Shown: piece after piece, positions 3,590 to 61,378 of the stretch
Layout: each line of letters opens with the position of its first letter
Position numbering within the stretch: position 1 is the first letter of the stretch
Source of the DNA: Eledone cirrhosa
Taxonomy: Eukaryota
Length of the DNA: 64,000 bases
Reading direction: 5' to 3'
Assembly (NCBI GenBank): GCA_964016885.1
Contig: OZ024763.1
Location: forward strand, 5,084,001 to 5,148,000
Made by a program: the position numbers and the translations under genes
Notes under the pieces: generated by a model
What the model was told of the DNA's origin: nothing
The model's database searches: none
The model's input: the letters and a program-made list of their open reading frames with translations, nothing else

Positions 3590-3647
3590 ATACCTGATGA
3601 TATCACCGGATTCATACGGAACCCGGTCATTGAAATGATCATAGTAT
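3590..3647 (+). ncRNA. minimal type I hammerhead ribozyme motif
   Basis: ATAC-CTGATGA-[atcaccggattc atac ggaacccggtcat]-GAAA-TGATCA-TA-GTAT. Stem I is ATAC/GTAT and stem III is palindromic. Confidence 0.7.
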
Positions 3648-3707
3648 AATAAACCTTTCAAGGATTTACACAAATCCAGCCTCCTGTCATTTCATTATTA
3701 TATATAC

Positions 3708-4050
3708 GGCCATGCCATTCTGAGTTCAAATCCCGCCGAGGTTAACTTTGCCTTTCATCCTTACGGGGTCGATAAAATAAAGTACCAGTAATGCTCTGGG
3801 TAATTTCTGGCCTTGTGCCAAACGTAGAAACAATTATTATATATATATGTATGTATATAAGGGCGGTGGATTGGCAATATCGGTAGAGGGTTTGACGCCA
3901 TGCTTTCCAGCATGGTTACGTCCCTTTATAATCTGAGTTCAAATCCCGCCGAGGTTGACTTTGCCTTTCATCCTTACGGGGTCGATAAAATAAAGTACCA
4001 GTAATGCACTGGGTAATTGCTGGCCTTGTGCCTAAAGTAGAAACAATTAT
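3708..4050 (+). mobile_element. two tandem family A SINE copies (3708-3838 5'-truncated, 3860-4050 full length)
   Basis: B-box, central motif and tail ggccttgtgcc..agtagaaacaattatt. Confidence 0.85.
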
Positions 4051-4259
4051 ATATATATATGTATGTATATATATACATTAACAGAGAAAGCTTTAAGCAA
4101 TACTCCGACCGGCTTCCGTCTCACTCAACAAACATTAGGATATACCTTAGTATAATCCCAATTATACGTTTGGGGTGCTAACTATACGTATTTTGCGGAT
4201 AGCCAGTTGTATTATTTTATATGAGACATAATTAAATACATCTCTATGTTTATATCTAT

Positions 4260-4601
4260 CTAAGGCGGGTAAAATTCCCGAGATCCATGGACGAGTTCTC
4301 TCCAGCGGTCTCTGTCCCTCATTATCGCTGCCATATCCTGCATCTCCAACAGACCAGTGTCTGTCCTTAGGGCATCAACATATGTTAACCTTGGTCTTCC
4401 TCTTCTAGTGTGTCCATGTAGGGGCTCCCAAAGGAGCACTGAGTGCAATGTCAACTCTGGATGTCGGTGAGCATGTCCAGCCAACCTCAGTCTCCTCTGT
4501 GTCACTTTTGAGCTGACTTTTGGGATGCTCCCATACAGCTCTGAGTTTTTCATCCTCAGTGTATACTGATTAATGTTCAGAGCCATCCTCAGCATTCTCG
4601 T
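4260..4601 (-). mobile_element. 5'-truncated RTE-clade LINE, C-terminal coding fragment
   Basis: RRLRLAGHAHRH..LLWEP..RRGRPRLTYVD..MRDRDRWR. Near-identical to 54429-54770. Confidence 0.9.
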
Positions 4602-5672
4602 ATATGTATATATATGTATGTTATATGTATATATATGTATATGTATATATATGTATGTTATATTGAAATGAACTTACACCGTGAATTCCTTGATGGAGCC
4701 GGCTCAACCCACCCCAGGGAAACGCCGCCACAAGTACAAGTAGTAAATATATATGAATCTATATTAAATATATATGAGGGAGTGGTACACACAGACATAC
4801 ACACACACACACACACACACACAGACACGCACACACACACACACACACACACGCACACACACACACACACACACGCACACAGACACACACAGACACACAC
4901 ACACACGCACACACACGCGCGCACACACACACGCACAAACGCACACACACACACACACACGCACACACACGCACATACACACACACACACACACACACAC
5001 AAACACACGAAAGGCCGTTTTATTTGAAATAAATAAACATACAAATGTATTATTTGGTATAAACAACCAACGCCGCAATTTACAAAATATTTCGACGAAA
5101 TACTTTTCGTCAAAGAAAAGAAAACAAATATCTTAAAAACCTTCCTGTGTTGTAGTGAAAGAAGGGGTCTAACTATTCATATCCATATCCGATACTGATT
5201 CCTCTCTTAAAACAGGATGTTGATATTGACTTGGCCAATTCCGTCAGAGACATTGTACCAGATATGACCTTTTCATATGATTACACTCATTTATAACAAA
5301 GTAAAACACACACACACACGTACACACATACATACATACATACAGACACACATATATACATACATAAATACATGTACGTATACATACATACATACACACA
5401 TACGCATGCACACATATGTATACATACACACATGCATACATGCATACATACGCCTGCAAATATATATATATATATATATATATATATATATATATATATA
5501 TATATATATAGAGAGAGAGAGAGAGAGAGAGAGAAGTAGTAACACAACAAATAGTTCACCATACCGAGAACAATTGATTCACCTTATGCGGATCTTCTAC
5601 CAAACTCGTCCCAGGGACTGAGTGCTCTACCACTACGGATATTACCTTCCAGTGTTCTACCTAGAAGATTAT

Positions 5673-5812
5673 ATTAATAAAAGGAATTCCAACTTTGTCT
5701 GATTTACTCGTTTTATTTACAATCCTTTAAAATTTATAATGGTATTAGAATGAAAGGATTGTAAATAAATAAAATGAGTAAATCAGACACAGTTGGAATT
5801 CCTTTTATTAAT
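5673..5812. repeat. inverted repeat, arms about 55 bp with a short spacer
   Basis: tattaataaaaggaattccaact.tgtctgatttactc / gagtaaatcagaca.agttggaattccttttattaata. Confidence 0.85.
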
Positions 5813-5884
5813 ACATATATATATACACACAAAGGCGCATGCATACATACACACACGAACCATATTATATATACATACATATCA

Positions 5885-6410
5885 ATGGTGGTGTAATGTC
5901 GGATAGAATGCTTTGTAGTATTTGTTCCGGCTTTCTGCTGCTCAGTCAGTTCAAATCTTGTCGAAGTCAATTTTATCTTTCATCCATTTCGAGGTCAATA
6001 AAAAAAAGTATCAGTCAAGTATTGGTGTCGATTCTTCCATTATATATCTCTTACTTTCTACCCTTCTCTAGAAGAAATCTGCTTTATTCAGACCTGGAGA
6101 GCTGATGGGTTCCGCCAGGTCTAAAAAGGAATTGCTTAAGAAACGCCGTATGTCTATATGGTGTCTCGACGACTCCATCAGGAGTTACACGACCATACCT
6201 TACCATTAAGAATCGATAAAACCTCACCAGTCAAGGACAATGGTCGAGTCTTCCTCTATATTTCTTTCTCATTCTTTATCCTGGAAGAAGGAGATTTGTT
6301 GTACTCAGAGGCCTAGAGGGGAGATGGTCTCCATCAGGGATTTTTTTAAAATGCCATAGAAATGCCGTATCTCAATATGGCGCCCCTGCGAATCCCCCGG
6401 GAGTTATGGG
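5885..6410 (+). mobile_element. diverged family A SINE with an alternative 3' module present twice
   Basis: module ...gaagaaatctgct..ttcagacctggagag..gatggg..gccaggt..aaacgccgtatgtc recurs at about 6240-6410 and 25465-25690. Confidence 0.55.
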
Positions 6411-7122
6411 ACATATAAAAAAAAAATAGAATGTTGAAAGATGGTCAAAGTCCGATTAGGAGCCAATGGTAAAGTTGGAATTTAACAGTGTCTCCTTACA
6501 TTTTAGTTTTGTTGTTTATACAAATTGCAGTACAAAATCTCGTAAACAAACTATTACCACTTGTGAACTTTATCTCCACATGTACAACAAAAATACAACA
6601 ACAAAAATGCCCACCAGAATTTCACTTTATCTTCGTTTGTAAATATTCTTTTCCGTTGGCAGAGAGAAAGGAAGGTTTAAATAAATAGAATCTGTCTTCC
6701 ATTTCTAGAGATCAGACAGAAATATTTCCCTATTTCGTTTTCCCATATTTTCATTTAGGTTTATCAAGAATTTGAGCCGTTATTTACTGCCACTTTGAAA
6801 TCAAACTTCGATAAAAGTTTCGAGATAAGTATCTCTCTCTCTCTCTCTCGTATATATATATATATATATATATATATATATATATATATATATATATATA
6901 TGCACAAATATTTTCAGAGTGAGCTCAATCTGTTTATGCAATATTGAAGACAGAGACACACATGTGTGTATATATATATATATATGTGTGTACACACACA
7001 TATACATGCCTATATACACCAACAAAGGGGTCCATTGAAAGTGGAATTAAATTATTTATACGAGCAAGGGTTTTACTTTCAGGCCATAATCTACAATACT
7101 TAAATATCTTCCCTGCTGTGTG

Positions 7123-59400: not shown

Positions 59401-59754
59401 TTGTTTGTGAACTGATTTATTCATGATGGGAGGTGTTTGTGACCTGAGGTCCGACTAATTAAAAGAATGGTTGCTTAAGAAATGAATAGTTGCTTAAGAA
59501 ATACAAGATGTTGTATACATGATGTTAAAACACTGACATAGTTTAGAATTCAATGGCTGAGACTTGTAGAGAAAAGTACTTATTTGGTATAAATTTCACT
59601 TCTGTAATTCTATATATGAATGTAACTACTGTGGGGGTCTGTTCGAGATACCAGTGTTTACAAGTCAATAAGGTTGAATTGACTTTAATAGATACCCTGA
59701 CCTTGAAATATCATAGTTGGTTCTATTGATTTTATTAGATTATAAATCAATAAA

Positions 59755-59960
59755 TATGAGGGTCAGCTGAAATGTTCATAGGCTGACCAAGATACTCCCA
59801 TGGAACGACCGATCGAATGAATGGGTTTATTTTTCAACATAGTTCCTGGAAAGAAACAATGCAGTTTGTTAATAAGATTTGAAATTAATGCATGCAAGAT
59901 TTCACAGCTCTAGCATCACTCTTTCATCATCAACCTCTGAACTATTCAGCCCATCTTTAT
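59755..59960. mobile_element. mariner-like MITE
   Basis: TAtgagggtcagctgaaatgttcataggctgacc ... tgaactattcagccc. Confidence 0.7.
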
Positions 59961-59984
59961 ATATATATATATATATATATGACA

Positions 59985-60358
59985 CACGACCGTGACTTCT
60001 GGCGTCACGCAGTAATACAGGGTACCCGACCTCCCATGGGTACATGCTGAAGCATATAAACAATATGCCCCCCCCCCCCCCCCCACCCACCGCAAGGTGG
60101 TCGTGGAGGTGCCACGGCAAAAAAGCACCCAGCCCACACTGTAAAGTGGACGTGTAGGCGCCACGAAAAAGCACCCAGCACTCACTGTAAATGAGGTTGG
60201 TGTTAGGAAGGGCATCCAGCTGTAGAAATCAAGCCAGATCAGTTCCTGTATGAGCAAGGCATGGTCAGCCGACCAGACACTGCCCACAACAGGACAACCC
60301 GTCTAACCCATGCTAGCGTGGAAGAACGGACGTAAAACGGTGATGATGATGATGATGA
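59985..60358 (+). mobile_element. SINE-like family C with an RTE-type 3' end and (GAT)n tail
   Basis: gcacccagc..ggttggtgttaggaagggcatccagctgtagaaa..acccgtctaacccatgctagcgtggaa..(gat)n. Tail fragments at 52615, 55200, 58078, 60500. Confidence 0.7.
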
Positions 60359-60561
60359 TATATATATATATATATAGCTTTCACCGTATTTTTGACTAAA
60401 GGAATTTTAGTCCAAAATACGGTGAAAGCTATATATTTTCTAATTTCAAACTCGCTCACTGTTTCAAAACATACTTACTTGCCATATATATATATATATC
60501 ATCATCATCGTTTAACATCTATCTTCCACGCTAGCATGGGTTTAGATATATATATATATAT

Positions 60562-60705
60562 AACGAAGGAAATGTGGTAAGGAACCAGATGGACCATAAC
60601 GCACCAAAGTACTCAATACTTAGGGTAGTAGAGTGGGTAATAGGAACGAGTAGGACCCCGACAGCTGAGCTCAAGCCGTTTCAATGGCTAATTCTGGACT
60701 AAATT
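60562..60705. mobile_element. family G element, single arm
   Basis: similar to 16440-16575. Confidence 0.8.
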
Positions 60706-60730
60706 ATATATATATATATATATATATATA

Positions 60731-60998
60731 TATTGTTATACTTTGAGAGGGTCATGTTGCCAATAAGAAACACATGCACCAGTTGTTTTCAAGAACTTTA
60801 ACAATATATGAACAATCGTCTGGTTGTGGAACCAACCAACCAACCGGAAATTTATAAATTTAATTTATAATAAATTGAAGTGAAAGCAACTGGTGCGTGT
60901 GTTTCTTATTGGCAACATGACCCTCCCAACATAACAATATCGGTTTCAACACACGTTTTCAGATAAAGAATCTTGCTAAACAAATTCAGAAACGAAAT
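60731..60998. mobile_element. (TA)n-embedded inverted-repeat element related to 14392-14710
   Basis: gagggtcatgttgccaataagaaacaca.gcaccagttg / caactggtgcgtgtgtttcttattggcaacatgaccctc. Confidence 0.75.
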
Positions 60999-61311
60999 AT
61001 ATATATATATAGAGAGAGAGAGAGAGAGACACACACACACACACATATGTATTCAACTCTTGTATATCTGCAGTGAGAATGGAACTATATATGTGTCCTC
61101 AAATATGGTTTACTAATGTGTTGTGGAACTAACTCTATATCGAACTCATCCTTTGGACTGAGTGCTCTACCAACTTCAGATATAACCTGTTTTTTTACCA
61201 CTATATATATATATATACACACATATACATACATATACATACATACATAATATATATATAAGTAAGACATGTAAGTCAACAGGTTAAAATTAACTTCATT
61301 TATTCATATTC

Positions 61312-61378
61312 GCTGTTATATATATTTCGGTGATAAGCATTATGTCATTATACAACAGCTCTGACCTCATCAGACAGC
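61312..61378 (-). ncRNA. minimal type I hammerhead ribozyme motif, same family as 16307
   Basis: minus strand GCTGT-CTGATGA-GGT..ACC-GAAA-TATATA-TA-ACAGC, with a perfect 5-bp stem I. Confidence 0.8.

Follow-up and report, generated by a model that had tools for sequence, protein, structure and literature searches.

Hammerhead-bearing islands in (TA)n repeats of Eledone cirrhosa are probably paired end pieces of Hydra-clade Penelope-like elements

We analyzed a 64,000-nt window of the Eledone cirrhosa genome (GCA_964016885.1, contig OZ024763.1, positions 5,084,001 to 5,148,000 of the forward strand; coordinates below count from its first letter), in which short islands beside (TA)n carry minimal hammerhead ribozymes. 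These islands are likely the hammerhead-bearing pseudo-long terminal repeat (pseudo-LTR) ends of Hydra-clade Penelope-like elements (PLEs) inserted into (TA)n, and each would consist of two cDNAs primed by both ends of one cut target on uncleaved RNA. A first-pass annotation of the window had proposed a dense and diverse population of (TA)n-embedded, Penelope-type hammerheads, and this is borne out by six complete sites and seven families.

The window contains 31 CTGANGA cores, six of which form a full type I hammerhead, with the core C at 3594(+), 10435(-), 16311(+), 25167(-), 25334(+) and 61373(-). All six have the CUGANGA, GAAA and UH core elements with helices I-III of a minimal type I hammerhead. 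The descriptor that yields them tolerates helix II mismatches and was loosened only after the sites were known; a stricter descriptor with perfect helices matches 10435 alone in the window. Dinucleotide shuffles gave one match in 6/200 (local) and 4/200 (whole-window) cases and at least two in 0/400, and the motif frequency is thus above the shuffled level (six observed, at most one in any of 400 shuffles). Helices had also been said to differ between families and still pair: an alignment of 14 motifs from the window and fetched loci shows double-sided changes in 12 of 15 helix pairs, a value reached by 0/500 shuffles (the sequences are related and this count is not a probability), and sliding the alignment drops pairing to 24-57%. 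The core and a C·C at the fourth helix II position are invariant in this alignment. Conservation of core and helices across divergent families points to selection. An Rfam scan of the small region around 10435 returns Hammerhead_HH9 at 28 bits, under the gathering score of 52, and a scan of the 16311 site alone returns no hammerhead match. The 150 listed of 769 matches in a whole-window Rfam scan are microsatellite hairpins against microRNA-type models.

The complete motifs lie where the first-pass annotation placed them; two further positions that it listed are not intact. The motif at 13780 is a chimera created by a 201-bp tandem duplication ending at GAAA, and at 13981 the core C3 is changed to T. 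Those it called partial, at 29140 and 30111, retain the core, helix II, GAAA, helix III and cut site and lack the helix I 5′ strand, which is lost to a perfect palindrome with its fold at this T in CTGA. The palindromic hexamer described for helix III does not extend to the 29140 family, with a 4-bp monomeric helix III, or to 10435, with a 5-nt insert; an AATAAA-like sequence follows all six complete motifs and is missing at 13981, 29140 and 30111. The islands were described as unique, and their sequence is not.

We assigned the sites to families A (16311), B (13981, 25167, 25334), C (3594), D (10435), E (30111), F (29140) and A2 (61373), and counted copies across the 3.0-Gb assembly with exact sequence patterns and reversed-pattern controls. 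Family patterns gave 1,323 to 28,397 matches and the reversed patterns gave none (B, 19,665; A with A2, 3,053; D, 1,323; C, 3,854; E, 5,026; F, 28,397, inflated by passive duplication, with common flanks in 6 of the first 30 loci). A generic pattern requiring C at the two fourth helix II positions matched 87,307 times (1,490 reversed), and one with C at neither matched 11,972 times (8,619 reversed), the listed excess of the latter being mostly satellite and other families. These generic counts covered C-both and C-neither motifs only; C·U families also occur. We estimate that the genome holds about 86,000 predicted hammerheads whose long helix II includes a C·C mismatch, and about 100,000 Hydra-clade Penelope end pieces. 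In 875 kb of fetched loci, a scan returned 359 hammerhead matches, several additional families among them. Further families appear at L075 1228, L087 1020, L116 3008, L157 2216, L066 1025, L138 2893 and L224 1428; the palindromic helix III of further families in the fetched loci has 4, 6 or 7 nt, and helix II spans up to 95 nt. An 18-bp satellite at G000:C1 7.5-9.5 Mb repeatedly matches a loose hammerhead pattern.

Parent elements were found for most families. Direct-tandem units with an open reading frame (ORF) between two hammerheads were identified for A (3.95 kb, L211), B (4.0 kb, L040), D (4.67 kb, L207) and E (7.08 kb, L197), and in family F an ORF directly follows the tail and hammerhead (L218). 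The family E ORF in L197 is uninterrupted (813 aa from Met). In these five families an ORF for a reverse transcriptase (RT) and GIY-YIG endonuclease begins about 140-400 nt 3′ of the hammerhead, and the proteins share 32-48% identity. RWR, DKT in place of DKG, YRDD, CxCx5C, CxxC and CxH are present in all five, the family A set having been assembled from L211 and L212 read separately; PMC8557442 gives such motifs as diagnostic for the Hydra clade. YRDD precedes Y[IV]G in A, B, D and E, as in a single ORF with a C-terminal GIY-YIG domain; family F has YRDD and the endonuclease Cys motifs, with no YIG match to a regular expression. No Pfam model matches the proteins of these families, and 118 unnamed homologues were found. 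Long 3′ untranslated regions bring the units to 3.95-7.08 kb, and 2.3 kb of the family E unit is TA-type microsatellite. A sense hammerhead in the pseudo-LTR and insertion in (TA)n are both present. The islands of A, B, D, E and F are pseudo-LTRs of Hydra-clade PLEs, and, as these families encode their own RT and GIY-YIG protein, each island is a short product left by insertion of an autonomous family. Fragments of ORFs from other Penelope-like families, some with YIGET-type endonucleases, occur in L029 (1557-2280), L061 and L172.

The label non-autonomous given by the first-pass annotation therefore fails for these five families and holds for family C. The latter has a 1,978-nt direct-tandem unit, seen as one direct dimer and matched by six other long copies, in which we found no ORF and no tblastn match; judged by this unit, family C is non-autonomous. 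No linked ORF was found for A2 among eight loci examined. That no Penelope ORF lies nearby was confirmed by tblastn of the window plus 10 kb on each side, which found no Hydra ORF, and the helper suspected elsewhere is in part real, in that the five families have their own RT and GIY-YIG ORFs at other places in the genome, including an intact copy. The set represents new and very abundant Hydra-type families, one of them non-autonomous, of a kind of element already described (PMC8557442).

Six families each have two discrete 3′ ends, short and long. Counted in nt from the predicted cut, with a few overlapping TA letters included, they lie at about 57/141 in A, 57/143 in B, 63/205 in C, 53/152 in D, 64/201 in E and 28/94 in F; the long end of A is seen in few copies. 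The tail, lying between the proximal and distal 3′ ends, corresponds to the leader of the following unit; that there is a tail and that it is found at one end has been published before (PMC8557442; PMC3846280). At 9 of 12 start sites for RT, an RCTC motif lies 6-9 nt 3′ of the site and can pair with a later TYGAGY. We classified 111 head-to-head pairs, selected by orientation and distance and not by end type. Ninety-one combine a long with a short end, three are short+short and one is long+long, the last being classed long+short in a separate reading; among the rest, nine have one long and one off-class end and seven include a read-through call. The longer arm in 39 tested pairs is long-ended in 21 and short-ended in 11, with seven similar. 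The 11 pairs with a longer short-ended arm suggest two separately primed cDNAs, and the split in arm length indicates that fold-back copying of one arm does not by itself account for the other.

Short copies in the six families stack at a sharp upstream limit (positions relative to core C3): A, 9/30 at -71 to -73; B, 7/55 at -86 to -89; C, 8/60 at -109 to -115; D, 9/53 at -38 to -49; E, 31/50 at 0 to -11; and F, 32/47 at 0 to -7. The E and F samples were enriched for close pairs; among the first 30 listed matches of family E, taken unselected, 17 of the 26 with a core are short. Upstream extents beyond about 100 nt were left unused, since mismatch between subfamily and reference explains part of them. 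In 6/6 families the limit falls on an A in an initiator-like context, following C in five and G in D. TCACT, termed initiator-like in rotifer Penelope (PMC3846280), stands at the limit in B and C, and family F has TATAAATA 30 nt upstream of its start. Promoters within the Penelope pseudo-LTR are known (PMC2377424; PMC6765202). Genome-wide, 1,730 family E copies begin at -7, and none of 30 inspected has the natural upstream sequence. Starts at the cut site number 49 and those at a control site lying 8 nt 3′ number 25, at most a twofold footprint of self-cleavage in family E with no clear peak; among 30 cut-site contexts, eight are inverted-arm microhomologies and three are point mutants. We infer that the short copies would be cDNAs of a transcript 5′ leader, made from uncut templates. 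As four of six families start 40-115 nt 5′ of the ribozyme, a transcript start is favored over a stall at the ribozyme. Two other signals were set aside: a G before +1, as a cap signature, was counted by hand in 29 of the first 100 listed E starts, several of them templated by an inverted arm, and a splice acceptor (CCCAG) at the F start was rejected, the other families being without one.

These junctions suggest a mechanism in which transcription would start at the initiator in the pseudo-LTR and the RT-endonuclease would cut both (TA)n strands. Priming would occur at the proximal site for one target end and at the distal site for the second, in both cases 6-9 nt 5′ of an RCTC...TYGAGY hairpin. 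cDNAs begun on the 5′ leader would reach the RNA 5′ end and give islands of 100-350 nt, those begun on the downstream repeat would give ORF-bearing copies, and the two cDNAs would be joined head to head. Family C would borrow the protein in trans. An in vitro precedent exists in another clade, where two internal starts are used, both strands are cut and extended and uncut RNA serves as template (PMC11167929).

Several observations weigh against this reading. A TATA box at canonical spacing is seen in family F only. Start sites and cleavage are both read from DNA junctions. The pile-ups coincide with the helix I edge in E and F and with an upstream hairpin in C, where stalls are possible. The cut-site count concerns family E only and used a pattern stricter than that for -7, and cleaved RNA may simply degrade. 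Three of 12 start sites, the distal one of F and the two of A, have no hairpin, and the 111 pairs come from matches listed for a single chromosome. The elements were placed in the Hydra clade by motifs and by-eye comparison with published alignments, and all units here exceed the Hydra norm of under 3 kb, a tendency that is not diagnostic (PMC8557442).

The same elements might instead leave ordinary 5′-truncated copies, with RT stalling after copying a hairpin and the cDNA folding back to make the second arm, an account we consider unlikely. It draws on the perfect palindromes centered on self-complementary spots (29141, 30112), on the location of the E and F junctions at helix I, and on the self-priming proposed for such palindromes (PMC3846280). 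However, the short-ended arm reaches far past the long-ended arm in 11/39 pairs, which is impossible for a fold-back copy, and a start at -7 is also seen in arms that adjoin (TA)n or an arm cut at another place. Reiteration of the first 13 nt occurs in some cases, and the A, B and D limits lie 40-90 nt 5′ of the ribozyme, which likewise disfavors a fold-back origin.

Independent non-autonomous retrozyme-like elements, amplified through self-cleaved circular RNA with a helper encoded elsewhere, are an improbable source of the islands. Such an origin would fit the ORF-less unit of family C, which has the same tail, (TA)n targeting and inversions, and the eight A2 loci without an ORF, and animal retrozymes reportedly descend from PLE pseudo-LTRs (preprint 10.64898/2026.07.22.740005). 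Yet five families own an ORF, short head-to-tail retrozyme arrays are absent among the fetched loci examined, and a circle has no 5′ end, whereas the short copies have a sharp common 5′ limit. Chance motifs in AT-rich repetitive DNA, to which the single site of the strict descriptor and the negative Rfam scan at 16311 might point, are refuted by the shuffles, the reversed-pattern controls and the covariation.

Under the preferred reading, with paired cDNAs copied from uncleaved RNA, the ribozyme would act outside templating. In A, B, C and D a monomer hairpin at helix III is unstable (+3.7 to +4.7 kcal/mol) and the self-duplex is stable (-2.2 to -7.2), and the palindrome thus favors a dimer; in family F helix III is monomeric. 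Published minimal PLE hammerheads cleave weakly as dimers (PMC4209133). We lean slightly toward a hammerhead that, dimeric or aided by a protein, cleaves tandem or read-through transcripts. A joint reading, in which a protein dimer cuts (TA)n and copies two RNAs from two hairpin-marked starts while the uncut helix III palindrome links the RNAs and the C·C gates cleavage, is offered tentatively and with considerable doubt.

Hydra elements have already been published together with their hammerheads, insertion into (TA)n, inverted arms and tails, and one octopus family is among them, Hydra-1_Obim of Octopus bimaculoides (PMC8557442). The families here share with that clade RW[KR], DKT, a CxCx5C linker, CxxC and CxH in the endonuclease, a sense hammerhead near the 3′ end, (TA)n targets, inverted 5′-truncated copies and, in some families, a U·U at the helix II base. 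They differ from Hydra-1_Obim as families and in their hammerheads, and from the clade in unit length (4-7 kb), tails (66-142 nt versus 30-40 published) and an ORF-less 2-kb family; neither a C·C in helix II nor a hexamer helix III is present in the Hydra hammerhead table of PMC8557442. Like minimal PLE hammerheads (PMC4209133), the motifs here belong to type I, having a long helix II, short helix I and palindromic helix III, found mostly as single truncated copies, with opposite-strand pairs 100-700 bp apart and predicted activity as dimers. The consensus there includes G10.1-C11.1 and, after A9, a bulged base, whereas 10.1-11.1 varies here (A-U, G-C, G-U, U·U, C·A) and the C·C lies three positions on; counts are about 10^5 versus the 4,000-9,000 quoted there. 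As for Poseidon PAc from Anolis in vitro (PMC11167929), two internal RT starts would define the tail. Both target strands are cut and extended and uncut RNA is the substrate in that system, features that the junctions here suggest; it belongs to another clade, and its starts lie inside the ORF rather than in the 5′ leader. The available text of PMC11167929 reports no pairing of one site per arm and no transcript-start limit in genomic copies. Family C resembles non-LTR retrozymes in being non-coding and PLE-related with a type I hammerhead, but these form 51-972-bp tandem arrays and family C is dispersed as a 2-kb unit whose inversions and tail are of PLE type (preprint 10.64898/2026.07.22.740005). 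Octopus Penelope-like families are treated in PMC13282606, with ribozymes unmentioned in its available text. Our literature searches found no earlier report of the count of long+short pairs, of a hairpin at start sites or of an initiator limit, and none of the C·C variant, which the supplementary alignments of earlier surveys, not covered by these searches, might already show. The C·C helix II variant and a hammerhead with a 115-nt helix II are apparently undescribed.

Within the window, family C is represented by a main arm with a short 3′ end (3531..3706, +), part of the ORF-less 1,978-nt family, whose hammerhead (3590-3647, +; core 3594) has U·U then C·C in helix II, TGATCA and a predicted cut after 3643. 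An inverted arm beside it (3453..3537, -; blastn to the tandem unit in L210, 96%) contains only the distal tail part, with the long 3′ end. An extra family C fragment unlisted by the first-pass annotation (32182..32281, -) starts within the hammerhead and has an internal deletion. The family D end module (10351..10626, -) has a short 3′ end and a hammerhead at 10438-10401 with a helix II of 4-5 bp, and an inverted tip of the D long end lies beside it at about 10620-10634. One family B insertion (13610..14081, +) comprises an inverted long tail, (ACAATAT)n filler, the 201-bp duplication and a short 3′ end, and includes chimeric motif 13780 and core-mutated motif 13981. Family B also forms a head-to-head pair, with a left arm (24984..25247, -; long 3′ end; hammerhead 25175-25111) and a right arm (25258..25438, +; short 3′ end; hammerhead 25326-25390). 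Family A extends from the -73 hot spot to a short 3′ end (16238..16407, +; hammerhead 16307-16360), and an A2 end module lies at 61252..61511 (-; hammerhead about 61378-61312). The family F palindrome (29075..29267, center 29141) has a short-ended minus arm and a long-ended plus arm, with the helix I 5′ strand of its hammerhead absent. The family E palindrome (29770..30317, center 30112) has a long-ended minus arm and a short-ended plus arm; its hammerhead at 30111 has about 115 nt between core halves, CGATCG and a helix I 5′ strand reduced to 2 nt. A 49-nt tip of the family E long tail lies in (TA)n at 13042..13090 (-).

Element sequence of 7-13 nt is reiterated at inversion junctions (13702-13755, 13903-13956, L292, L293), which resembles slippage synthesis by a telomerase-related RT. 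Matches to the A2 reference at 15591 and 60705-60940 were assigned to a different repeat. This other (TA)n-embedded repeat, a head-to-head pair at 60705-60940 and a fragment at 15591-15665, has no hammerhead match and is possibly a further Penelope-like end. At 26201(-), CTGATGA is followed by a 6-7 bp hairpin without GAAA, possibly a decayed hammerhead. Unrelated to the hammerheads, a 1,076-aa open frame with AP endonuclease and RT domains (40172-43402, -) is an apparently intact long interspersed element (LINE), and two 3′ fragments of another LINE-like RT lie at 4260-4673(-) and 54429-55160(-). The window also contains an internal array of eight telomere-type GTTAGG repeats (7122-7169), a perfect 112-bp palindrome around a TA/CA microsatellite (1436-1547) and a 128-bp unit repeated 5.2 times at 100% identity (21976-22640), which holds a piece of a short interspersed element (SINE) that also interrupts L040. 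The (TA)n load and SINE of the window presumably resemble those of octopod genomes.

Both the C·C variant and the 115-nt helix II escape perfect-helix descriptors, and the only C·C site scanned by itself has no Rfam hammerhead match; hammerhead counts in animal genomes may therefore be too low. About 10^5 end junctions in at least six related families, one with an intact ORF, bear on the inverted ends, the tails and the purpose of the hammerhead in these elements. Their statistics sharpen the Penelope mechanism into exact predictions: where transcripts would start, that a hairpin would mark the RT start, that each target end would use a different start site and that cut RNA would rarely serve as template.

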